Assembly: GCA_963422365.1 (NCBI GenBank)
Contig: OY729426.1
Coordinates: forward strand, 512,001-576,000
Direction of reading: 5' to 3'
Length of the DNA: 64,000 nucleotides
Origin: Nitrospirales bacterium
GTDB lineage: Bacteria > Nitrospirota > Nitrospiria > Nitrospirales > UBA8639
The first letter of the stretch is position 1, and every line of letters starts with the position of its first letter. The notes beneath the pieces are model-generated. The model was not told the origin of the DNA, did not search any database, and saw nothing but the letters and a program-made list of their open reading frames with translations. Positions 23,374 to 35,501 of the stretch are shown one piece after another. The translations under genes and the position numbers were made by a program.

Positions 23374-24585
23374 TCAAGATTCTTCGATCAGCTGGTACTT
23401 TCGGATCCGGTAGGCGATTTGACGTGGAGTCATGCCCAACAGCCTGGCCGCCTTCGCCTTGACCCATCCGGCTTTCTTGAGAGCTTCTCGAAGACGATCC
23501 CGTTCGATCGCATTCAACCGTGCAGAGAGCGTGTGTTGGGATGCAGGACTGCTCGACTTGGTGGTGGACTGAGATTGCACCGTTTGCATGTCATCAAAAT
23601 AGGGCGCGAGTGATTCAGGAATGGACTGTACCTCGATCAGCGACGTCTCTGCCAAGACGACCAACCGTTCAATGCAATTTTGCAATTCGCGAATGTTTCC
23701 AGGCCAATGGTAGACGCTCATCACATGAACGAGGTCTTTCCCTAATTGGACGCGCCGGTTATTGTCGCGAGTGAATTTGTCGAGAAAATGCGTCATGAGC
23801 AAATGCACGTCGTCCCCTCGGGCACGTAAGGGGGGAAGCGTGAATGGCACAACGTTCAGCCGATAATACAAATCTTCTCGAAACTCACCTGTATGGATCA
23901 TGGCTTCGAGGTGACGATGCGTCGCGGCAATCACCCGAACATCGACCGAGAGTGTCTCCCCACCTCCGACTCGCTCAAATTCTTTGTCTTGAAGCACGCG
24001 AAGGAGCTTGACCTGGGTTGAGAGGGGAATATCTCCGACCTCATCAAGAAACAACGTTCCGCCGGCTGCCTGTTCCAGTCGTCCTTTTCTCGCCTGACTC
24101 GCTCCCGTGAAGGCTCCCCGTTCATGCCCGAACAGGGTGGTTTCAATGAGGGTCTCCGGAACCGCCGCGCAATGCACCACCACAAATGGTTGTTCGGCAC
24201 GCACACTCGAGTGGTGAATTGATTGCGCCACTAACTCTTTTCCCGTTCCACTTTCGCCGCGGAGCAACACCGTTGCCGAGGTGTTCGAGACCCGCTGAAT
24301 GGCAGCCTGCACCGCCTGCATCGCCGTGCTCTTTCCAATAAGAACCGGCGACTGTTTCTTTTTCCTCTGGAAACTTGAAGATTTCGGTGAATCACCTGAT
24401 GGCTTGAGGCATGGGGATGACTCGGAATTCTCAGAAGAACGGTCTGGAGCCTTTCCTGTTTCAGCTTCTTGACTCAGCAAGGCTAGGGCTTGGCGAATCC
24501 GTGTTTCAGGAGAATCCTTTCCCTCTAAAATCGTACCCAGTCGGGTGATGAGATTGTCATCGTCCTTTGAAAGGTCGTGTTGCAT
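23374..24585 (-). CDS. Sigma54-dependent transcriptional activator (NifA-like AAA+/HTH) without an intact sensory domain
   Basis: [57 protein letters not shown]. Confidence 0.92.
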
Positions 24586-25074
24586 TGCGCCGCCCACGTC
24601 TTCAGAAAACAAAAGGCACCGGGATAGCCACATGCAAAAACGTTTCTCGTTTTCACAGGGTCGCCCCGGCGCCTTTGCCTCGGTACGCTTATCGACTGAC
24701 TGAACAAGAAATCGACTGATTTCTCTTACTGACGTGATGCTCGACGAATGTACAGCACCCGTGCCTCTAATAATAAAAAAACGCCCTTTCCCAACCTTCG
24801 TTGGGGAAGGACGTTCATTGTCCTCACAGCTTGTCTCTTGCAGCAAAATGACGACTTTGTCATTCTCAGATTGAAGTTAACCGCACTTTCCTCTGTTTGT
24901 CAATGGTAGTTGTTAAGACACGGTCTCAACCCACATCATGTAAAGTGTTGGAAGAAACGACGAGAGGTTGGCCGTCAGGACTCATCTCGAGCAAACGGAG
25001 GACCATCGAGTCCATCCAGCCACAGCCCACGGGCAAGATGGTCTCATGAAGATTTTTCCAGCAGGGGTCAGGAA

Positions 25075-27189
25075 ATGCAGAAGGTCTTCTCCAGATTAAT
25101 GAGAACGTTTCCCTTAACCATCGGGCACCGCCTGCTTGCCATCATTGTCGTATTGATTGGGTCGCTCGGCACTATCATGGCCATGATCCTCACCACGGGT
25201 TACAACGTCGAACCGGACGCCGTGGTGGATATCGCCGGCCGCCAACGCATGATGGTTCAACGGTATTTCAACGAAACCATCTTGGCTTCCCGTGGCATTG
25301 ACAAAGATCGTTACGCCACGCAGCAGGTGTTGTTGCACTCCGTCGATGCCTTACAAAACGGGGGAGCAGTCATCGTCAATCTGGATACTGAGGAACGCCG
25401 CTCGATTCCCCCGGCGCCGACCGCCCAGGTCCGTGACCTCTTGACGCAACAGCGTGCCTTGCTGGAACGATTCTTTTCCACCACCCAAACCCTGCTGCTC
25501 GAATCCGCGGATCGTGCTCCGTCGTCTGAAGCCTTTTCCGTCCTCAATGAACGGCAAGACGAGCTTCTCCGGAACACCGACGAGGTCGTGAAATTGCTGA
25601 GCACCCATTCTCCTCAAAACACGCAGTGGTGGTTACGAAGCGAGCCGATCATCGGACTCCTGGTAATCGTCTTCAGCGTGGTGCTGGCCCGCCAAGTGGT
25701 GGCCACGAGCAGCAGGCTCGAACAAGAAATCGAACAGCGCAAAAAAGCCGAGGATGAACGCAACCGCTTCTTTGCGCTCTCTCCGGACTTGTTCTGCATC
25801 GCGCAACGGGATGGCAGCGTCAACACGTGCAATCCGGCCTGGGAACGCGAACTGGGCTATTCCACGGCAGAACTTCACAACCACTCCCTCACGGAATTCG
25901 TGCATGCGGAGGATCGCCCCGCCATGATTCAAGAGTTGGCCGTCTTGAAGCAGGGCACCCTTTCGGCTCAATTTGAAAATCGATTCGTGGGAAAAGACGG
26001 CTCGGTGAAATGGCTGCTGTGGAACATCGCCGTCAGCCAAGGGGAGCCCCTGTTGTATGCCACGGCACGTAATATCAATGAACGCAAGTTATACGAGGAG
26101 GAACTCGCCTTGCGCGATCGTTCCATCAATTCGGCGACCAGCGGTATTCTGATCGCGGATGCCCGCCGACCCGATATGCCCACGGTGTATTGCAACGCCG
26201 CCTTTGAAAAAATCACGGGCTATGCCACGGAAGAAGTGTTGGGCCGGAATTGCCGCTTCCTGCAGGGACGCGATCATGATCAACCCGGCCTAGACGCCAT
26301 CCGTCAAGCGATCCGGGACGGCACGGAGGGCAAAGCCGAGTTGCGCAATTACCGGAAGGACGGCAGGTTGTTTTGGAATGAGTTCTACATCGCCCCGGTC
26401 CGCGATCCGCAGGGAACGCTCACGCATTTCATCGGGGTGCAAACGGACGTCACCCAACGCAAGCAGCAGGAAGCCGAATTGGCCCAGAAGACGGAAGCCC
26501 TGGCTCAATCCAACGCCGAGCTTCAACAATTTGCCTACGTGGCCTCCCACGACCTCCAGGAACCGCTCCGCATGGTGGCGAGCTATACCCAGTTGCTCGG
26601 AAAACGCTATAAAGGCAAACTGGACGACGATGCGGATGACTTCATCGGGTACGCCGTGGATGGAGCTGAACGGATGCAGTGGCTCATTCGTGATCTGCTG
26701 GAATATTCACGAGTGGGCTCGGAGAACAAATCCTTCGAATCCACCGAATGTGAACGGATCTTGCAGCAGGTCATGAAGAATCTGTCGGCGGCGATCCGAG
26801 AGCATCAGGCCGAGATCACCCATGATCCACTGCCCGTCATCCAGGCCAACCCGACGCTGCTCACCCAAGTCTTCCAAAACGTGATCGCGAACGCGCTAAA
26901 GTTCCAAGGAGAATCCCCTGCAACCATTCACGTGGGTGCCAGGCCCCTGTTCGACGGATGGGAATTCTTCGTTCAGGATAACGGGATCGGCATCCCGCAG
27001 GATCAACTGGATCGCGTCTTTGCCATCTTTCAACGATTACACCTCCGGAGCGACTACCCAGGAACGGGAATCGGATTGGCCATCTGCAAGCGAATTGTGG
27101 AAAAACACGACGGAAAAATTTGGGTGGAATCCGAACCGGGGAAGGGATCCACCTTCTATTTCACCATTAAGACCTCACGGACCGCATGA
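25075..27189 (+). CDS. Membrane sensor histidine kinase: PilJ/NarX-like extracytoplasmic domain + PAS + LOV + phytochrome-type HisKA/HATPase
   Basis: TM1, VDIAGRQRMMVQR, TM2, PAS, LOV motif GRNCRFLQG with NYRKDG..FWN and FIGVQTDVT, then FAYVASHDLQEPLR and GTGIGLAIC. Confidence 0.93.
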   Translation: MQKVFSRLMRTFPLTIGHRLLAIIVVLIGSLGTIMAMILTTGYNVEPDAVVDIAGRQRMMVQRYFNETILASRGIDKDRYATQQVLLHSVDALQNGGAVIVNLDTEERRSIPPAPTAQVRDLLTQQRALLERFFSTTQTLLLESADRAPSSEAFSVLNERQDELLRNTDEVVKLLSTHSPQNTQWWLRSEPIIGLLVIVFSVVLARQVVATSSRLEQEIEQRKKAEDERNRFFALSPDLFCIAQRDGSVNTCNPAWERELGYSTAELHNHSLTEFVHAEDRPAMIQELAVLKQGTLSAQFENRFVGKDGSVKWLLWNIAVSQGEPLLYATARNINERKLYEEELALRDRSINSATSGILIADARRPDMPTVYCNAAFEKITGYATEEVLGRNCRFLQGRDHDQPGLDAIRQAIRDGTEGKAELRNYRKDGRLFWNEFYIAPVRDPQGTLTHFIGVQTDVTQRKQQEAELAQKTEALAQSNAELQQFAYVASHDLQEPLRMVASYTQLLGKRYKGKLDDDADDFIGYAVDGAERMQWLIRDLLEYSRVGSENKSFESTECERILQQVMKNLSAAIREHQAEITHDPLPVIQANPTLLTQVFQNVIANALKFQGESPATIHVGARPLFDGWEFFVQDNGIGIPQDQLDRVFAIFQRLHLRSDYPGTGIGLAICKRIVEKHDGKIWVESEPGKGSTFYFTIKTSRTA

Positions 27190-28967
27190 ACACAACCACC
27201 ATTCTCTTGCTTGAAGACAACCCGGGGGACGCTCGCCTGATTCGGGCACTCTTTCGAGACATCTCAGGTCGCTCCGTCACCATTCTCAACGCCGAGTCGT
27301 TAAAACAAGCACGCGAGCGCCTGTTCGAAACTCCGGTGGATGTGGCCCTGGTGGACCTCTCGTTACCCGATAGCCAGGGGTTGGCCACTTTTCGAAAACT
27401 AGCCGAGAGTCACCCCTGGCTGCCGCAAGTCTTGCTCACGGGCCTCAACGACCAGGAGATTGCCATCCACGCGGTTCGTGAAGGCGCGCAGGACTACTTC
27501 GTCAAGGGAGAAGTCGACGTCCAGATCCTCATGCGAGCCATCGAATACGGCATCGAAAGAAAACGCATCCAGGCAGAATTAGAAGCCGTAAACGCCCAAG
27601 TCCAACAAAGCGCCGACGATCTCCATTCGATTTTGAATCAACTGCACATCGGGACGATTCTGACCAATTCCCAAGGGCGCATTCTCCACATGAGCGTGTC
27701 CGCCCTCCGATTATTGGGCAAAAGCGAGCAGAACCTGGACTGTCAAACGTGGCGGGACGCCATGGGGCTACCGGACCACGATGTCCAAGCCCTGGAACAA
27801 CTCATGGACCAAGCCCCGGAGGAACGGAAAAAGGTCCTCATCCAGTGTGCCACACCGGAACAGGCCCAACGGTGGTTGGAAATCGATGTTCAAGACGACC
27901 CGCGCGACATCCGAGCCAAGATGTTCTTTCTTTACGATGTCACCGAGGTTCATACCCTCAGGAAACAACTGGATGAACAATCCCAATTTTACGATTTTAT
28001 TGGAAAGTGCCAGCCCATGCAGAACGTGTACCGGCAGATCCAAAACCTCGCGCCGGTGGACTCAACGGTCTTAATCGAAGGGGAAACCGGCACGGGCAAA
28101 GAACTCGTGGCCCGTGCCCTGCACGCGGCCAGCCCCAGAAAGGAGAAGACCTTTCTCGCGGTGCATTGTGCCGGACTGACCGAATCCCTACTGGGAAGCC
28201 AATTATTCGGACACAAAAAAGGTGCGTTTACCGGGGCCAGCACCGATCACCGGGGATTTTTTGAATCCGCCCACGGGGGGACCATCTTGCTGGATGAAAT
28301 CGGCGACATGCCGCATAGCGTGCAGACGAGTTTGCTCAGAGTGTTGCAAGAGAAAGAAATTACCCGCCTAGGCGAATCCCAACCGAGAAAGGTGGACGTT
28401 CGCATTATCTGCGCCACCCATCGCAACTTACATGAGCAGGTCTCCCAACAGACCTTTCGAGCCGACCTGCTGTATCGCATTCGGGTTGGCCGCATCCGCT
28501 TGCCGGCGCTTCGGGAACGCAAAGAAGATATTCCGGCATTGGTAGCGACCTTTCTCAGTCAATGCCGTCAAGCAGTGGGCAAACGGTTCGTGCAAGACAT
28601 CAGCCCGGAAGGGTTGCACCTGCTTTCCCAATACCCCTGGCCCGGGAACGTGCGGGAACTGAAAAATGTCATCGAATACGTTGTGCTGCAATGCGAGGGA
28701 TCCACCATCCACCCGCATCATTTTCCAACCGAGTTGCTGGAACAACCTCGCGAGACCGTCCAGCAGGAACAGCCTGTAGCACACATTCCCCGGGACAAAG
28801 ACAGGAACCAGATCCTCGCCGCCCTGCAACGCACCAAGGGCCATCGAACACAAGCGGCCAGTCTACTCGGAATTAGCCGAGCGACTCTCTACCGGTGGTT
28901 GGACGATTTGGGCATCACCCCCGAGGATCTCACGCAACGGCCCCACGCGAGTTCCGATTCGCCCTGA
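27186..28967 (+). CDS. Sigma54-dependent response regulator (REC-PAS-AAA+-Fis HTH)
   Basis: LLEDN..D / VDLSLPDSQG receiver, GETGTGKE, GAFTGA, LGISRATLYR; ATGA overlap with the kinase. Confidence 0.93.
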   Translation: MNTTTILLLEDNPGDARLIRALFRDISGRSVTILNAESLKQARERLFETPVDVALVDLSLPDSQGLATFRKLAESHPWLPQVLLTGLNDQEIAIHAVREGAQDYFVKGEVDVQILMRAIEYGIERKRIQAELEAVNAQVQQSADDLHSILNQLHIGTILTNSQGRILHMSVSALRLLGKSEQNLDCQTWRDAMGLPDHDVQALEQLMDQAPEERKKVLIQCATPEQAQRWLEIDVQDDPRDIRAKMFFLYDVTEVHTLRKQLDEQSQFYDFIGKCQPMQNVYRQIQNLAPVDSTVLIEGETGTGKELVARALHAASPRKEKTFLAVHCAGLTESLLGSQLFGHKKGAFTGASTDHRGFFESAHGGTILLDEIGDMPHSVQTSLLRVLQEKEITRLGESQPRKVDVRIICATHRNLHEQVSQQTFRADLLYRIRVGRIRLPALRERKEDIPALVATFLSQCRQAVGKRFVQDISPEGLHLLSQYPWPGNVRELKNVIEYVVLQCEGSTIHPHHFPTELLEQPRETVQQEQPVAHIPRDKDRNQILAALQRTKGHRTQAASLLGISRATLYRWLDDLGITPEDLTQRPHASSDSP

Positions 28968-29021
28968 AAGCACGGCGATGAAACGTCCGAACTCGCCGTT
29001 CGCTCCCCCTTGCCAACAGTA

Positions 29022-29173
29022 TGTCTTTCAGGCGTGAGACATAAATGAGACATTTTATTGTCTTTCGGAAACCATTGCGGCTGCATTCGCTATTTGTAAG
29101 CACTTGATTTGAAAAGCCTTTCAATAATTCAGCCGGCATGGCGCATGGCTGGCATAATGGCACACTCTTTGAA
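29022..29173 (+). promoter_or_regulatory. Sigma54 promoter 1: enhancer repeats + IHF site + -24/-12
   Basis: TGAGACA at 29035 and 29046; IHF consensus AATCAAGTGCTTA on minus strand 29097-29109; TGGCAC-ACTCT-TTGAA at 29158-29173. Confidence 0.75.
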
Positions 29174-29212
29174 TATTTTTAAAAGACAACAAGCTGGCGA
29201 GGAGAGCCCACA

Positions 29213-29680
29213 ATGGATTCAGGCACGACAAAGCCTACTGTGATTTTGGTGATTGAAGATAATCCGGTCGACGTGCGGCTCATCAAAGAAGCTTTAAAAG
29301 AATCCTCGCTGCAGGCCACATTGTCCTTTGTACATGATGGATTGGCTGCCACTCGTTTTCTTCATGAAGCCAAACACGCACCTGGTGAAAACCTCCCCCA
29401 GCTGATCGTGCTCGATCTGAATCTTCCGAAAAAAAGCGGGTTTGAACTACTTAAAGAGATCAAATGGGATGAGATTTTGAAGCGAATTCCTCTGATTGTA
29501 CTGAGTTCTTCGTATAACCCCGCGGATATTGCCAGAGCCTATGATCTCCATGCGAACTGCTATCTCACTAAACCCGTCAACTTTGAATCCTTCCGCAACA
29601 TTGTAAAAGGCGTGGAATACTTTTGGCTGCGAGTCGCCAAGCTTCCCTGTGCCGCAAACGCTGAATCCCCTTCGCCGTAA
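29213..29680 (+). CDS. Single-domain response regulator (Rcp1-like, phytochrome-associated type)
   Basis: ILVIEDNPVD, LIVLDLNLPKKSG.E.L.EIK, AYDLHANCYLTKPV, FWL. Confidence 0.92.
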   Translation: MDSGTTKPTVILVIEDNPVDVRLIKEALKESSLQATLSFVHDGLAATRFLHEAKHAPGENLPQLIVLDLNLPKKSGFELLKEIKWDEILKRIPLIVLSSSYNPADIARAYDLHANCYLTKPVNFESFRNIVKGVEYFWLRVAKLPCAANAESPSP

Positions 29681-29706
29681 CCTAGGCCGAAAAATACTCT
29701 CGAAAC

Positions 29707-29830
29707 TGTCTCATTCGATTTTTATGAGACAAAAATATGTCTCATCTGCAATGGATCATCCAGGTATCTTAACAAAATAATTCATAACACATTGAAATAA
29801 AAAGTAATGCATTTTGGCACACAAGTTGAA
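29707..29830 (+). promoter_or_regulatory. Sigma54 promoter 2: enhancer repeats + IHF-like site + -24/-12
   Basis: TGTCTCA at 29707, TGAGACA at 29725, TGTCTCA at 29738; IHF-like TTTCAATGTGTTA on minus strand 29785-29797; TGGCAC-ACAAG-TTGAA at 29815-29830. Confidence 0.75.
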
Positions 29831-29886
29831 AGGGAAAGGGTGCAGGATCGGAAACCGATAACATTCTTTAAGTAGACGAAACCATC

Positions 29887-30204
29887 ATGGCCGGTTCACA
29901 AACATCTGGTCAAACAAGTGCCGAGAGCCAAGTATCCAGTCAGAGATGTTTCCGATGTGGGGGGCTGTTAGTGCGGGAAAGTCTCTTCGATCTTTTCGAT
30001 CATGCAGGGCAAATGTGGTATTGGGCCTTACGGTGCGTCCAATGCGGCAATGTCGTGGACTCTCTCATCCTCAAGCATCGGACAAGCGCCGACCGTCAGG
30101 ACCCCCAACCCGCCGCACCAACGCCGCTGGTCATGGGTCCAGACGGTCAAGAGTCAATGATGACCATCCACTCACATCTTCTAAAAGGAGGAGACGAATC
30201 ATGA
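29887..30204 (+). CDS. Small zinc-ribbon-like protein (CxxCGG...CxxCG)
   Basis: CFRCGGLLV...RCVQCGNVVD; ATGA-coupled to the next gene. Confidence 0.7.
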   Translation: MAGSQTSGQTSAESQVSSQRCFRCGGLLVRESLFDLFDHAGQMWYWALRCVQCGNVVDSLILKHRTSADRQDPQPAAPTPLVMGPDGQESMMTIHSHLLKGGDES

Positions 30205-31145
30205 AGAAACTTCTACCAGCCACCCCGACGGTCGTTCTGTCCGGGATATTGATCCTGATCCCCTGGACCGCAGCCCTGGGCGCAGACTCTGCGGACATGA
30301 TCATGATCCCGCAAGGGGAATTTACCATGGGCGGCAAAGACCACCGTGATGAAACCCCTCACCAAGTCGTGCTCGATGCCTACTATATTGATACGTACGA
30401 GGTCTCGAACGCCAAATATCGAGAATTCATGAAGGCTACCCAGCACTCTGCACCAGCCTACTGGGATGACCCGCGCCTCAATAAACCGGCACAGCCCGTG
30501 GTGGGAGTGAGCTGGTATGACGCCAATGCCTATTGTGAATGGGAAGGCAAACGACTGCCCACGGAAGCGGAATGGGAACGCGCGGCCAAGGGTCTCGAGA
30601 ACGCTCATTTTCCCTGGGGGCACAAAATCGAACCCGCCAGAGCGAACTACGGCCAAAATGTAGGAAAAACCATGCCGGTGGACTCCTACCCGAATGGGGT
30701 AAGCAGCTTCGGTGTATACAATATGGCCGGTAACGTCTTTGAATGGGTCAGCGATTGGTATTCACCGACGTATTTCCAGGTCAGTCAGGCGCTCAATCCT
30801 CAAGGGCCTTCTAGCGGCTTTAACTTTGCGAACCAAGGTCCGGTCAAGGTGCTCAAAGGTGGTTCCTGGCTTGCTCCTCAGACCTCCCTGCACACCAGCC
30901 ATCGTTTCTGGAATCAACCGGACAACAATTCCTATGGGGTGGGCCTTGGGTTTCGATGTGCACGGTCGGCTGGGGACAACACCTTGGAACCGATACGATA
31001 CGACTTCATACACGCCCTCATCAGCATGGGCAAAGAACAATGGGAGGATGCCTTGCATGCCATTGACAAGGCCATCAAAAACAATCCGGACAACATGGAA
31101 TACCGGCAAACCCGAGAAATCATCGTAAAACAACTGCAAGGGTAA
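30201..31145 (+). CDS. Exported formylglycine-generating enzyme (FGE/SUMF1) family protein with C-terminal TPR-like helices
   Basis: Signal peptide, IPQGEFTMG, RLPTEAEWERAA, NMAGNVFEWVSDWY, KGGSW, GFRCA; AAAGGAGG RBS. Confidence 0.9.
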   Translation: MKKLLPATPTVVLSGILILIPWTAALGADSADMIMIPQGEFTMGGKDHRDETPHQVVLDAYYIDTYEVSNAKYREFMKATQHSAPAYWDDPRLNKPAQPVVGVSWYDANAYCEWEGKRLPTEAEWERAAKGLENAHFPWGHKIEPARANYGQNVGKTMPVDSYPNGVSSFGVYNMAGNVFEWVSDWYSPTYFQVSQALNPQGPSSGFNFANQGPVKVLKGGSWLAPQTSLHTSHRFWNQPDNNSYGVGLGFRCARSAGDNTLEPIRYDFIHALISMGKEQWEDALHAIDKAIKNNPDNMEYRQTREIIVKQLQG

Positions 31146-31191
31146 GAGGTGCGAGATCTTTGGTGGTCATTGGGAAAACCGGAGGTGAATC

Positions 31192-31563
31192 ATGAAGAAA
31201 ATAAATCTTATCACGATGATCTTCATTGCGTGGAGTCTCACCTGGGGAATCGGGCTGGTATGGGCCAGGACTTCAGGAAAACATTTTCAGCCACGGAACC
31301 CTGTCCAAGCATCCCTCTACCTGGCCGGCAAAAGCGTGGATGAGGCCTGGGAGGCCTTTCATCATTCGGCACTCGGAGGGACCCTGGCCTCCCCTTCCAT
31401 CCAGACGAAGATCGAGCAAGCCTTACATGATTCTCGACTGCTGTTAGTCGAGGCTCGAGTAGCGGCAAACGCCGATGACGACAGTGCGGTCTTGGAACTC
31501 ACGGAACGGATTGGGAGAATCGCTCGCCAAATCAAAAAAGACAGCCAACGGCGAAAACCATGA
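31192..31563 (+). CDS. Exported hypothetical helical protein
   Basis: GGAGG RBS, signal peptide, ATGA-coupled to the next gene. Confidence 0.75.
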   Translation: MKKINLITMIFIAWSLTWGIGLVWARTSGKHFQPRNPVQASLYLAGKSVDEAWEAFHHSALGGTLASPSIQTKIEQALHDSRLLLVEARVAANADDDSAVLELTERIGRIARQIKKDSQRRKP

Positions 31564-32348
31564 AGCTCAGAGTTATCACACTACTGGCACTGCTCCTTTG
31601 GTATCTTCCAGTTGTTGCGGAACCCATGAAAAGGGATCCGGCCCCGATGGTGGCAATTCCTGCCGGAAGTTTTATTCGAGGAAGCAGCCAGAACGGGGGG
31701 CGGACCGATGAACAGCCTCGTCGGAAGATCTATCTCGGTGCCTTTATGATCGACAAATACGAGGTGACCAATGCGCAATACCTCGACTTTCTTTCCGCCA
31801 CGGGGCATCAGGAACCGCTTAACGTGTATGGCGACGGATCGTTGTTCGAGGTGAAGGGCATTGCCCACTTACCCGTGGTCCAGGTCACATGGCATGATGC
31901 TGCGGATTATTGCCAATGGCTCGGCAAACGTTTGCCATCTGAAGCCGAATGGGAAAAAGCCGCTCGAGGCACCGATGGAAGGGTCTACCCATGGGGAAAT
32001 GAGGGACCCTCGTCTCAATACGTGAACTTCAATCGTGATTGGGTCGCTCCGCACGCACTCGTACCGGTCGGCGCGTTACCCGACGGCGCCTCGCCCTACG
32101 GCGTCCATGAGATGGCAGGGAACGTGAGAGAGTGGGTCCAGGACTGGTATAGTAAAGACTACTATCACGTGGCACCGAATCGAAACCCCAAAGGCCCTGA
32201 GACGGGGCTGCTGAAAGTCATTCGCGGCGGCTCCTGGCACAGCTTCGAGTCCGACATTCGGATAGCTGCCCGTGGAAAAGGAGGGTTCGCGTTGAAAACC
32301 CATGGGACCGGCTTCCGTTGTGCCAGAGGCATTCCTGACTCACCGTAA
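31560..32348 (+). CDS. Exported FGE/SUMF1-family protein
   Basis: RLPSEAEWEKAARG, MAGNVREWVQDWY, RGGSW, GFRCA; signal peptide. Confidence 0.9.
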   Translation: MKLRVITLLALLLWYLPVVAEPMKRDPAPMVAIPAGSFIRGSSQNGGRTDEQPRRKIYLGAFMIDKYEVTNAQYLDFLSATGHQEPLNVYGDGSLFEVKGIAHLPVVQVTWHDAADYCQWLGKRLPSEAEWEKAARGTDGRVYPWGNEGPSSQYVNFNRDWVAPHALVPVGALPDGASPYGVHEMAGNVREWVQDWYSKDYYHVAPNRNPKGPETGLLKVIRGGSWHSFESDIRIAARGKGGFALKTHGTGFRCARGIPDSP

Positions 32349-32368
32349 CCCGTGGCACGAGGCCAACG

Positions 32369-33298
32369 ATGAACATTGCTATTGTGGGGGGCACAGGATT
32401 TATCGGCAGGAATATCGAACCCGTGCTCACTGCCGGTGGACACCGGGTGACGATCGTGACTCGAGACCCCGACAAGGCTTCTGGGGTGGTTGGAGCCAAG
32501 ACTCACGTGCGCGGATGGGATCCGTCGAATGCGGAGACGCTGGACCAGACCTTTCACGAGCAGGACGCCCTTATCAACCTGGCGGGCGCTTCTATTGCCG
32601 AAGGCCGATGGACGCAAGTGCGCAAAAACCTGCTTCGGACCAGCCGGATCGAGACCACTCGGATACTGGTGAAGGCGTTGTCGAATCTCCCGGAAGCCAG
32701 TCGACCACACATCTTTATCAGCGCATCAGGCATCGGGTATTATGGACTCGAGACCACCAATGGTGTCGATGAAACGACGGGACCGGGAAATGGGTTTTTG
32801 GCTGACCTATGCGTGGAATGGGAACGCGAAGCCTTCAGGGCAACGGCCTATGGCATTCGGACCGTGTGTCTGAGAATCAGTATGGTGTTAGGGAAAGACG
32901 ACGGCGCCCTGCAAAAAATGCTTCTCCCCTTCAAATTCTTTCTTGGGGGTCCCATCGGCACAGGCACGCAGCCCGTGAGCTGGATCCACGTTGAAGATCT
33001 GGGACGGCTTGTCGTAGCCATGCTTGAACAGCCCTCTTGCAAAGGCGCTATCAATGCGGCTTCTCCCCATCCAGTCACGATGAAAGAATTTTGTCTGCAA
33101 CTGGGGAAGGCCTTGGGGAGACCTGCTTGGCTTCCTGTTCCGGCGTTGGCGCTTAAAATCGGATTAGGAGAAATGGCTACGCTCATGACTCATGGTCAAT
33201 TGGTGAATCCCCGCATGGCTCAACAACTGGGATTTACTTACAAATATCCGAACCTGGAATCGGCTTTTTCTGCGATACTAAGGAGAGGTCATGAATAG
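32369..33298 (+). CDS. TIGR01777-family NAD-dependent epimerase/oxidoreductase
   Basis: GGTGFIG, INLAGASI, SASGIGYYG, FLADLCVEWE, SWIHVED. Confidence 0.92.
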   Translation: MNIAIVGGTGFIGRNIEPVLTAGGHRVTIVTRDPDKASGVVGAKTHVRGWDPSNAETLDQTFHEQDALINLAGASIAEGRWTQVRKNLLRTSRIETTRILVKALSNLPEASRPHIFISASGIGYYGLETTNGVDETTGPGNGFLADLCVEWEREAFRATAYGIRTVCLRISMVLGKDDGALQKMLLPFKFFLGGPIGTGTQPVSWIHVEDLGRLVVAMLEQPSCKGAINAASPHPVTMKEFCLQLGKALGRPAWLPVPALALKIGLGEMATLMTHGQLVNPRMAQQLGFTYKYPNLESAFSAILRRGHE

Positions 33299-33355
33299 CT
33301 CGGACGGTGTTTCATCGGATTGCTCCAGCATGTTCGCATAAAGAAGGAGGGAAGC

Positions 33356-33838
33356 ATGAAACCATTGGCGACTCCATCGGCGAGCCAGTTCCCCATGTGC
33401 GTCGAACGGTGGATTTTCCTTGTCATTTTACTAGGACTCATGTTGTGTATCCCAATCCAGAGCCATGCACAGCAAGGGAATCCTCACGGTGACACGTCAG
33501 ACCCCATGCTCCCTCCGCCAGGAGTCATTGGAGTCGCGCTGCATCTCACTGCCGAACGCATCGGCGATCCCGCCGGCCTGTTTATTCGAGCAACCCATCC
33601 CTTGGGACCGGCCGTCAAAGCAGGACTGACACACGGACAGGAAATTCTGGCCGTGGACGGCCAGTCTATCAAAGGGAAAACGTATCGAGAGGTCGTGTCC
33701 ATGATACGAGGAGAGGTCGGGGCATCGGTCACACTCCTTGTCAAAACCTTTTCCGACGTCAGGGAAGTGAAGATCGTTCGCGTCAATGAGACACGGTTAG
33801 CTGAAGAACAACGAATCGGTACGGACAACTCCCTGTAG
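33356..33838 (+). CDS. Exported PDZ-domain protein
   Basis: GVIGV...GPAVKAGL..G.EILAVDG....IRG..G.SV.L; N-terminal hydrophobic segment. Confidence 0.85.
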   Translation: MKPLATPSASQFPMCVERWIFLVILLGLMLCIPIQSHAQQGNPHGDTSDPMLPPPGVIGVALHLTAERIGDPAGLFIRATHPLGPAVKAGLTHGQEILAVDGQSIKGKTYREVVSMIRGEVGASVTLLVKTFSDVREVKIVRVNETRLAEEQRIGTDNSL

Positions 33839-33863
33839 TTGTCCGTCAACCCCAAGGCTTCTC

Positions 33864-34877
33864 ATGACCGCCCGGGCAACGCCTACGCACTCACCTATGC
33901 TCCCTGAAGAAACACCCCACGCATCAGGTCTTCCTGTACGGTTGGGCATCAGCCGTTGCTTGTTGGGTGAACCCGTTCGGTACGACGGGGGCCATAAACG
34001 GGATCAGTTTCTGGCGGACGTGCTCGGGCAGCACGTGGAGTGGATTCCGGTTTGTCCCGAAGTGGAAGCAGGATTCGGCACACCGAGAGAATCGATGCGT
34101 TTAGTCGATGACGTGGATGAACCGCACTTGATGACGGTTCGTTCTCATCACGATCACACTGAACGGATGCGCCGTTACACCAAAAAACGGTTGCGCGACT
34201 TACAAGCTTTGAACCTGTCCGGATATGTCTTTAAAAAAGATTCCCCCAGTTGCGGAACCCAGCGCGTTCGAGTGTATACCCGCGAAGGCCATCTCCTGCG
34301 AAAAGGGAAGGGAACGTTTGCCGATGCATTCCAACACCTGTTTCCCTTAACGCCTATCGAGGAAGAAGGACGACTGCGGGACCAAGGCCTTCGGGAACAT
34401 TTTATCGAACGCGTGTTTGGCTATCACCGGTGGCAATCCCACCTTCTCCATACACGACTCACCCGCGGGAGGCTGGTTGCCTTTCATACGGCCCACAAAT
34501 ATCTCTTATTGGCCCACAGCCGACGGCATTACCAAGAGCTTGGTCGATTAGTGGCCAATGCCCGACAGTGTTCCGCTCGAACGTTGGCCCAGGCCTACGG
34601 TCAACGGTTTATGGAGGCCTTGGCCGTCAAAGGAACCATTCGCAAACACGTCAACGTGCTCCAACACGTGGCCGGTCATTTCAAGGACGACTTAAGTTCC
34701 AGGGCGCGCGGGGAACTACACGCGGTGATTGCCGATTACCAGAAAGGGTTTAAGCCGCTGAGCGTCCCCATCACCTTGATCAGACACTATGTCCGGGTGT
34801 TGGACATGCCTTACCTGAGGGATCAGGTGTATCTTGCACCCCATCCCAAGGAACTCATGTTGAGAAACCACGTCTGA
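33864..34877 (+). CDS. YbgA-family DUF523+DUF1722 protein (TudS/RudS-like Fe-S thiouridine desulfidase)
   Basis: GISRCLLGEPVRYDGGHK, CPEVE, KKDSPSCG, FHTAHKYLLLAH, YL.PHP.ELMLRNHV. Confidence 0.92.
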   Translation: MTARATPTHSPMLPEETPHASGLPVRLGISRCLLGEPVRYDGGHKRDQFLADVLGQHVEWIPVCPEVEAGFGTPRESMRLVDDVDEPHLMTVRSHHDHTERMRRYTKKRLRDLQALNLSGYVFKKDSPSCGTQRVRVYTREGHLLRKGKGTFADAFQHLFPLTPIEEEGRLRDQGLREHFIERVFGYHRWQSHLLHTRLTRGRLVAFHTAHKYLLLAHSRRHYQELGRLVANARQCSARTLAQAYGQRFMEALAVKGTIRKHVNVLQHVAGHFKDDLSSRARGELHAVIADYQKGFKPLSVPITLIRHYVRVLDMPYLRDQVYLAPHPKELMLRNHV

Positions 34878-34891
34878 TTGTTAGATCATTC

Positions 34892-34917
34892 GGGACGGCA
34901 CGGGGGCCGTCCCCTAC
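34892..34917. repeat. GTAG-type REP hairpin
   Basis: GGGACGGC-ACGGGG-GCCGTCCC followed by CTAC. Confidence 0.6.
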
Positions 34918-34970
34918 AACAACAATGCACCCCCCCCCGTGGTTGTCCGTCAACTGAAAGAGAGGCAAAC

Positions 34971-35501
34971 ATGAGCGATTCAACAAAAGGCGTGGTACTC
35001 GTGGGGCATGGAGGCATTCCGAAAGGCTACCCTGGGGAACTGGTCACGAAGCTCAAACGACTTGAAGCCCAACGACGCGCCGCAGGAGTCCCGATGTCTG
35101 AAGAGGAATATGAACTCGACCAAAAAATCAGGCTGTGGCCTCGAACCCCGGAAACCGACCCCTATCAAGCCGGGCTTGAAGTATTGGCCACCCGCCTCAG
35201 GCCCCTCCTGCGCGGCGCACGGTTTTCCACGGCCTATAACGAATTTTGCACGCCCACGCTCAGCGAAGCCATTCAACAACAGATCGTCGACGGAGCCACA
35301 GACATTACCGTGATCTCCACCATGTTCACACCGGGCGGCTCGCACTCGGAATATGAGATTCCCGAGGAAATGGACGACCTGCGCAAGAAGTATCCCGATG
35401 TGACCTTGACCTACGCCTGGCCCTTCGATCTGGATAAGGTGGCGGAAATGCTCTCAGATCATCTCCATCGATTTCAGGGCCAACCGTTCGGAGAGGATTG
35501 A
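34971..35501 (+). CDS. CbiX/SirB-type chelatase-domain protein
   Basis: VVLVGHGG, AYNEFC.PT, GGSHSE.EIP, TYAWPFD. Confidence 0.8.
   Translation: MSDSTKGVVLVGHGGIPKGYPGELVTKLKRLEAQRRAAGVPMSEEEYELDQKIRLWPRTPETDPYQAGLEVLATRLRPLLRGARFSTAYNEFCTPTLSEAIQQQIVDGATDITVISTMFTPGGSHSEYEIPEEMDDLRKKYPDVTLTYAWPFDLDKVAEMLSDHLHRFQGQPFGED

Follow-up and report, generated by a model that had tools for sequence, protein, structure and literature searches.

A probable blue-light switch, formed by a LOV membrane kinase and a sigma54 activator, at an inherited UV-protection operon of a Nitrospirales bacterium

The window considered here is the whole 64,000-nucleotide stretch (positions 512,001 to 576,000 of contig OY729426.1) taken from a Nitrospirales genome, named G000. 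The system in question is a group of eleven genes within it, encoding a membrane sensor kinase with a LOV domain, a sigma54 enhancer-binding activator, a single-domain receiver and a run of output genes that includes a RudS-type protein (Table 1). The kinase, the activator and two enhancer-bearing promoters probably constitute a blue-light switch of an inherited UV-protection operon, with tuning by periplasmic nitrate or nitrite probable as well. The eleven open reading frames described in an earlier note, made from the letters of the window, were all recovered where it had placed them, on the + strand, and its domain families agree with the Pfam/NCBIfam matches.

It is proposed that blue light leads to a flavin-Cys393 adduct, by which the phosphorylation of H492 would be altered. 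Phosphate would then pass to D57 of the activator, which would bind the TGAGACA repeats and open both promoters with the aid of IHF-induced bending. The outputs would correspond to the run that is controlled by CarH in relatives, as suggested by synteny, and would here consist of RudS, removing UVA-absorbing 4-thiouridine, a chelatase, a TIGR01777 protein and exported proteins. In a weaker step, the induced single-domain receiver would drain phosphate and damp the response; the weakest step of the model is the binding of nitrate or nitrite by the periplasmic domain. The sigma54 circuit is very likely and the light input is likely; a slightly smaller, still good, likelihood attaches to light turning the circuit on rather than off, an analogy drawn because CarH de-represses in light.

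G000 is a single contig of 2.50 Mb, 98.6% complete, which encodes rpoN, ThiI and three HU/IHF-family proteins. The alpha subunit of nitrite oxidoreductase is also encoded (1550 bits to PDB 7b04), which justifies the label "nitrifier" given in the earlier note. Members of this GTDB genus are for the most part sponge-associated, with genomes of ~2.4 Mb (PMC11812461), and, from this description of the genus, the source lineage is likely a sponge symbiont. The comparison covered a genus set of 33 genomes besides G000 and a family set of 115 genomes; relatives' genomes are denoted G### and fetched loci of relatives L###. The genus genomes are mutually related, so that presence/absence counts among them are non-independent tests.

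The predicted phosphorelay, its promoters and its outputs

The Pfam architecture of the kinase comprises PAS, a second PAS corresponding to LOV, HisKA and HATPase. The adduct cysteine is found in GxNCRFLQ, followed by the flavin-binding Asn, Asn and Gln positions, and this is the sole true LOV motif among the 15,556 six-frame open reading frames scanned in the genome. Every NCBIfam LOV-kinase model scored below its cut-off on this kinase, and bacteriophytochrome kinases are among its top PDB matches. The LOV cysteine is retained in 30 of the 33 orthologous kinases examined, and mean identity among orthologues is 84% in the LOV domain versus 60% in the periplasmic domain. When a 50%-identity library was searched, the N-box and LOV motifs were both present in only 2 among the best 150 of 247,207 matches. 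A motif census of the genome found the ASHDLQEPLR H-box in this kinase only, among seven kinases, and returned EDNPxD receivers only in the activator and the single-domain receiver. The kinase would signal to both of these receivers, which lie beside it.

The kinase and activator genes are coupled by a 4-nt ATGA overlap (27189 vs 27186), as the earlier note had read. The activator consists of REC, PAS, Sigma54_activat and HTH_8 domains and has the features of an enhancer-binding protein, namely Walker motifs and GAFTGA in the AAA+ domain and a C-terminal HTH, together with rpoN in the genome and a -24/-12 promoter with an upstream enhancer, the -12 reading TTGA. Recognition helices of the six other activators of G000 differ from its SRxT(L/F)YR helix. 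The single-domain receiver has one REC domain with D68 and its own predicted sigma54 promoter, and it is lost in G070; by promoter logic only, the chances that the induced protein acts as a phosphate sink are about even.

Predicted sigma54 promoters before the receiver and before the run, claimed in the earlier note, are upheld by comparison with relatives. The sigma54 pattern alone is at chance level (with two mismatches allowed, 66 matches are expected in the window and 66 were counted); the two promoters are significant because they are conserved in relatives and have unique enhancer 7-mers. Transcription is predicted to start 12-13 nt downstream of the -12 element. In 24 of the 27 genomes with an activator-headed run (a count that leaves out the duplicate loci L085, L092 and L098), the run is preceded by a sigma54-type site; near matches occur in the other three, and TGAGACA or TGTCTCA is always found upstream of the site. 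Among 39 sigma54-like sites of G000, these 7-mers lie 60-170 bp upstream of two, which are promoters 1 and 2; the chance of at least two such 7-mers in that interval is ~7e-5. No further promoter of G000 with exact enhancer 7-mers was found among 552 relaxed sites. The exact palindrome is present in 23/28 activator-positive versus 0/9 activator-negative genus genomes, and it stands at another gene in 2 of these 23 (G072, G100); for G000, a scan at one mismatch gave one palindrome only. Four palindrome matches fell in activator-negative genera. In three of them, a paralogous activator (48-53% identical) sharing the SRxT(L/F)YR helix is adjacent and a sigma54-like site is ~75-85 bp away; the fourth occupies the same gene neighbourhood, but the activator was not recovered there. 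The IHF-like site, located with the IHF consensus, is well supported at promoter 1, and the corresponding site at promoter 2 is weak (6/23 loci vs 1.9 expected).

Among the outputs, the DUF523-DUF1722 fusion contains three Fe-S cysteines and the catalytic Glu, Arg, Ser and Ser, matched by spacing to the published numbering and not by alignment with RudS_KT, and is predicted to be a RudS-type tRNA 4-thiouridine eraser. RudS strips 4-thiouridine from tRNA, the growth delay of E. coli under UVA being reduced from ~105 to 60 min, and rudS genes are frequently located in light-responsive operons (PMC11417400). The earlier note had placed both DUF523-DUF1722 and TIGR01777 in photolyase or light-induced clusters; the first statement agrees with this source, while for TIGR01777 no such report was found in the literature searched, and its light link comes from synteny in these loci. 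In relatives, the run additionally contains peroxiredoxin and DUF4149. Neither HemH nor CbiD was found in G000, nor a second chelatase of the CbiX type; the CbiX-like protein is probably also a housekeeping enzyme, plausibly useful under light by clearing free tetrapyrroles.

Table 1. Features of the locus (window coordinates; TM, membrane helix; aa, amino acids)
Feature	Position	Strand	Basis
Membrane sensor kinase, 704 aa: TM - PilJ/McpN-like periplasmic domain - TM - PAS - LOV - HisKA (H492) - HATPase	25075..27189	+	Pfam/NCBIfam, hydrophobic windows, motif positions
N-box-like motif, residues 51-62, with R58 equivalent to McpN R61	25225..25260	+	10/12 positions of published pattern
LOV domain, residues ~350-465, adduct-forming Cys393 in GRNCRFLQ	26122..26469	+	Motif and later Asn, Asn, Gln positions
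Sigma54 enhancer-binding activator, 593 aa: REC (D57) - PAS - AAA+ (GAFTGA 346-351) - HTH	27186..28967	+	Pfam/NCBIfam, motif positions
Predicted enhancer array, promoter 1: TGTCTTT 29022, TGAGACA 29035, TGAGACA 29046, TGTCTTT 29059	29022..29065	.	Conserved in relatives
IHF-like site between enhancer and promoter 1	29097..29109	.	20/25 loci vs 1.1 expected from shuffles
Predicted sigma54 -24/-12 element of single-domain receiver (promoter 1)	29158..29172	+	TGGCAC-N5-TTGA
Single-domain receiver (D68), EDNPxD type as in the activator's receiver, predicted feedback modulator	29213..29680	+	Pfam, motif census
Predicted enhancer, promoter 2: TGTCTCA 29707 and palindrome TGAGACA-N6-TGTCTCA 29725-29744	29707..29744	.	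Conserved 7-mers
Predicted sigma54 -24/-12 element of output run (promoter 2)	29815..29829	+	TGGCAC-N5-TTGA
Small four-Cys zinc-ribbon protein, first gene of the run	29887..30204	+	Weak match below cut-off; four Cys conserved in relatives
Exported FGE-sulfatase-domain protein 1	30201..31145	+	Pfam
Exported 123-aa helical protein, no Pfam family	31192..31563	+	SmbP-like metal-binding lead only, score 0.85
Exported FGE-sulfatase-domain protein 2	31560..32348	+	Pfam
TIGR01777 family oxidoreductase	32369..33298	+	317 bits vs cut-off 207
Single-PDZ protein, exported or membrane-anchored	33356..33838	+	Pfam
RudS-type TudS(DUF523)-DUF1722 fusion, predicted tRNA 4-thiouridine eraser	33864..34877	+	C32, C64, E66, R75, S127, S129, C130 present
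CbiX/SirB-like chelatase	34968..35501	+	Pfam
Divergent NifA-like sigma54 activator without receiver domain	23374-24846	-	Relatives suggest start near 24585

Several neighbouring observations were made. A sigma70-like promoter before the kinase (window ~24905-24940) is conserved in relatives, has an altered -10 in G000 and overlaps a TGTCTC half-site, hinting at autoregulation; in G169, a PA0069-like radical SAM gene stands directly 5' of the kinase (L115:1890-2753). Copies of the enhancer and promoter lie ahead of large exported proteins in G072 (L131:6264-9131 and L125:4027-8001) and G100 (L130:1-921). They are complete with a sigma54-like site in L131 and L130 and interrupted in L125, whose protein contains a Calx-beta domain, and in some symbionts adhesin genes may have been drawn into the regulon. 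In G169 (L132:4874-7355) and G055 (L133:4553), a palindrome with one mismatch lies ahead of a multicopper-oxidase/cytochrome c fusion cluster, a possible extra regulon member. The CbiX gene is followed by an EB_dh heme-binding gene in many relatives and by c-type cytochromes in some, hinting that the CbiX-like protein contributes to heme supply; its assignment as a B12-pathway gene was rejected, as no CbiD was found. In G169, NnrS and photolyase are encoded ~7-11 kb behind CbiX (L116:5440-10001). The divergent NifA-like activator often adjoins a formate/nitrite transporter in relatives, a transporter that G000 lacks.

Linkage and replacement of the regulator among relatives

Across the genus, the kinase, the activator, the promoters and the enhancers are present or missing as a set. 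The kinase was found in 25/33 genus genomes and the activator in 33/115 family genomes, belonging to three genera only; the latter is present in all 25 kinase-positive genus genomes and absent from all 8 kinase-negative ones, none of which has an enhancer-plus-promoter pair left. The order kinase-activator-receiver-run is kept in most fetched loci, the exceptions being G146 and G018, split by insertions, G070, without the receiver, and G084, with two. RudS is full-length in 25/25 kinase-positive genus genomes; a match to it is found in 8/8 kinase-negative ones, where it is cut to the DUF523 half in four, and CbiX is likewise kept in all eight. In G022, whose RudS is the closest to that of G000 (86%), a clean deletion spans the kinase to the second FGE gene, and in G028, G043 and G108 the front module is deleted, leaving promoter 2 directly ahead of TIGR01777-PDZ-RudS-CbiX. 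Photolyase is encoded inside the activator-headed run in G120 and directly behind the run in G055. The earlier note had made its reading depend on the output genes being linked to the kinase in relatives, and this linkage held up. Named relatives of the 123-aa protein belong to Nitrospirales in 15/15 loci. Candidatus (Ca.) Nitronereus thalassa, a cultivated member of the lineage (PMC11812461), has a kinase orthologue 67% identical over 697 residues, with the LOV cysteine and the N-box-like motif kept, and an activator orthologue is named there as well.

Outside the activator-positive genomes, another type of regulator is associated with the same run. A divergent gene for a MerR+B12 protein heads it in 9 sister-genus loci and 10 outgroup-family loci, with a photolyase gene in 17 of these 19 stretches; no such head was present in 8 other outgroup-side loci fetched. 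These head proteins retain Wx9EH, plus the His motif with Gly or Ser/Ala, and TTGACA with tandem 11-bp TnnACA repeats was found at 8 of the 9 promoters checked, a sigma54 site at none of the nine. Wx9EH and the TnnACA repeats are the motif and operator definitions of CarH (PMC9304148). Matches of at least 48% identity to the head occur in 47/115 family genomes (four of them partial; the count includes the genome of the query) and in 0/33 activator-positive ones, some of which have a second, internal CarH-like gene (~30% identity). In G000, neither a MerR-B12 regulator nor TnnACA repeats were found. In a 49-row tree of the second FGE protein, a single change of head type is needed and, because the outgroup is CarH-headed, the LOV-sigma54 head is likely derived, having replaced a CarH-type head in a single swap. 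That two unrelated photoreceptor families head the same operon, albeit through one event, is the strongest evidence for light as the cue of the run. The CarH-headed photolyase-RudS run found across Nitrospirales families (L135-L145) looks like an undescribed B12-dependent light regulon.

The second sensor and competing explanations

The earlier note overlooked two membrane helices of the kinase, which enclose a PilJ/McpN-like periplasmic domain. A structure model of this domain was built with 20 aligned relatives and reached a mean pLDDT of 85; its first three PDB matches are to the nitrate receptor McpN (6GCV, TM 0.63/0.77), and the Gly, Arg and Met that contact nitrate in McpN (PMC6381276) are kept, within an McpN-like predicted fold between the two helices. 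A profile search of the domain against the PDB gave McpN at E 0.088, and a single-sequence search gave no relevant match. The N-box score is 9-10 in 28/29 kinases; G120 carries a GAF domain in place of the sensor. Binding of nitrate or nitrite by the predicted domain is offered as a hypothesis because the strict N-box pattern, [IVL]-[ND]-x-A-G-x-Q-R-M-L-[ST]-Q (PMC6381276), is not matched in full, and the chances of a periplasmic nitrate/nitrite input to the kinase are put a little short of even. Given a nitrate-receptor-like domain, light is probably not the sole input. Elsewhere in the family, LOV-less N-box-like sensor domains are common (L061-L066, L068-L071), several at 11/12 positions. 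In L071, such a LOV-less kinase is followed by a receiver and a paralogous activator, an arrangement that is a possible ancestor of the LOV module. In G098 (L067:2919-5024), an N-box/PilJ sensor, PAS and sigma54 activator are fused in a single protein, a predicted one-component nitrate-type activator.

A number of observations speak against the blue-light switch with nitrate/nitrite tuning. In the periplasmic domain, 10/12 N-box positions agree, with M for L and V for S/T, the PilJ match stays under the cut-off (19.4 vs 26.6 bits), and the E-value of the McpN fold match is only 2e-3. In the LOV domain, the Gln after the Cys motif is replaced by Tyr in 3/30 LOV-bearing kinases, and in three genomes (G025, G028, G043) the circuit is retained although the kinase has no LOV domain. 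At -12, both G000 sites and 41/50 sites across relatives read TTGA, not TTGC, a prevalence suggesting selection for the non-consensus base. The swap of heads counts as a single evolutionary event and not as many independent cases, and the tree supports it weakly (49/0). Photolyase, encoded in 11 of 16 other family genomes searched, was found neither in G000 nor in the 33 genus genomes searched and is lost in this genus; genomes that lost the kinase still have RudS, CbiX and, often, TIGR01777 or PDZ. Lastly, a sponge study reports no significant light-dark expression difference for a Nitrospirae bin (PMC12879404), although its available portions do not reveal the read depth or whether this bin carries the LOV system, the supplements containing Nitrospirae 16S rows only. 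Reads from one run presumed to be RNA fell as short pieces over several of the genes, which cannot show expression or rank genes, and two more runs gave none. The earlier note had called the system putatively complete, which goes too far in view of the missing photolyase and the persisting tail genes; its core proposal of a sigma54-dependent blue-light regulon is supported by the linked parts, the promoters and the unrelated photoreceptor heading the run elsewhere, with the sponge study on the other side.

Of the alternatives, the one that survives best, although unlikely, takes a chemical signal as the main input. According to it, periplasmic nitrate/nitrite would be sensed, LOV would modulate the response or read flavin redox or oxygen in the dim sponge, and the run would serve oxidative/nitrosative stress and heme maintenance. 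The N-box-like motif in 28/29 kinases, the three genomes that lost LOV and retained sensor, activator and promoters, and the genus-wide loss of photolyase are in its favor, as are, in relatives, a peroxiredoxin within the run and NnrS close to it, the unchanged day/night expression of the sponge bin (PMC12879404) and the induction of Vibrio cholerae photolyase by NO as well as by blue light (PMC11976125). However, LOV is far better conserved than the sensor domain, G120 combines LOV with no N-box domain and a photolyase in the run, and the ancestral head is of the B12 photoreceptor type.

It was also considered that the activator controls the front of the run only (the receiver, zinc ribbon, FGE proteins and 123-aa protein), the tail from TIGR01777 to CbiX being constitutive and its light link a relic. 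Tail genes persist without the kinase, therefore part of the run needs no activator; the 123-aa gene was not found in 7/8 kinase-negative genus genomes, where RudS and CbiX stay, and besides CbiX no other chelatase of this kind was found, nor HemH or CbiD. What makes front-only control improbable is that intergenic gaps are just -4 to 90 nt, that sigma70 and terminator scans gave chance-level counts with no promoter excess inside the run, and that promoter 2 is kept directly ahead of TIGR01777-PDZ-RudS-CbiX in the three genomes named above. That another activator, e.g., the divergent NifA-like protein adjacent in G000 and several relatives, drives the promoters while the kinase signals only via the single-domain receiver is very improbable, as this protein is present without the enhancer in G022, G092, G114 and G098, is absent from many loci retaining it, and differs in the recognition helix.

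The blue-light switch can also be extended into a broader, speculative and rather doubtful scheme: a light-AND-nitrite gate would have displaced a B12 photoreceptor in a lineage without B12 synthesis, and its promoter would have been copied to adhesin genes in some symbionts, so that light tunes host attachment. If so, sigma54 photoprotection would fire only when light and nitrite coincide, when nitrite photochemistry is harmful, and a lineage lacking B12 synthesis would have been freed from that cofactor.

Significance and relation to known systems

Photoinhibition of nitrification is well documented (PMC9239080, PMC12879404) and links between LOV and LitR are already known (PMC9758184). In the open-access literature, subscription papers being outside the search, no description of a light-sensing pathway in nitrite oxidisers was found; neither this locus nor a sigma54 photoprotection operon driven by a LOV kinase turned up there. 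Predicted sensor, activator, binding site, promoter and outputs are united here in one place, and the named orthologues in cultured Ca. Nitronereus thalassa make the claim testable. The locus would represent a photoprotection operon in which a B12 repressor gave way to a LOV-sigma54 activator, and would give a handle on the response of nitrifiers to sunlight; the CarH-headed version is probably a light regulon throughout Nitrospirales. As a tight pair with a defined enhancer, LOV kinase and sigma54 activator could also serve as an optogenetic part.

The closest outputs are those of the CarH/LitR operons (Pseudomonas PplR/PmlR, Vibrio VCA0056-phr, Enterobacter), in which photolyase and RudS are under a MerR-B12 regulator (PMC11417400, PMC9758184, PMC5241685), the arrangement found at the same locus in relatives. 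In contrast, a phosphorelay activator with sigma54 and no repressor is predicted here, and CarH and photolyase were not found in G000. BphP-AlgB of Pseudomonas aeruginosa similarly connects a photoreceptor histidine kinase to an NtrC-type GAFTGA regulator (PMC6932827), but the photoreceptor is a bacteriophytochrome, biofilm and virulence are repressed, and the available portions of that source contain no photoprotection operon or mapped sigma54 promoter (PMC6932827). With McpN/NarX-type PilJ domains, the kinase shares a predicted four-helix periplasmic domain with the binding-site G, R and M, whereas two N-box positions differ from McpN, a beta-hairpin insert is predicted and the domain is fused to a LOV kinase. 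Its H-box and the receiver motifs are of the Cph1-Rcp1 type; unlike in that system, there is no phytochrome module and one receiver of the pair forms part of an AAA+ activator. The same LOV chemistry is used by LovK-LovR, Brucella LOV-HK, the Pseudomonas syringae LOV kinases and Bacillus YtvA. LovR, the single-domain receiver partner of LovK, is a sink, and the alphaproteobacterial and Pseudomonas LOV kinases as well as YtvA feed general-stress sigma factors. Those LOV kinases are soluble, whereas the kinase described here is predicted to be membrane-bound, to carry a periplasmic domain and to act through a sigma54 activator.

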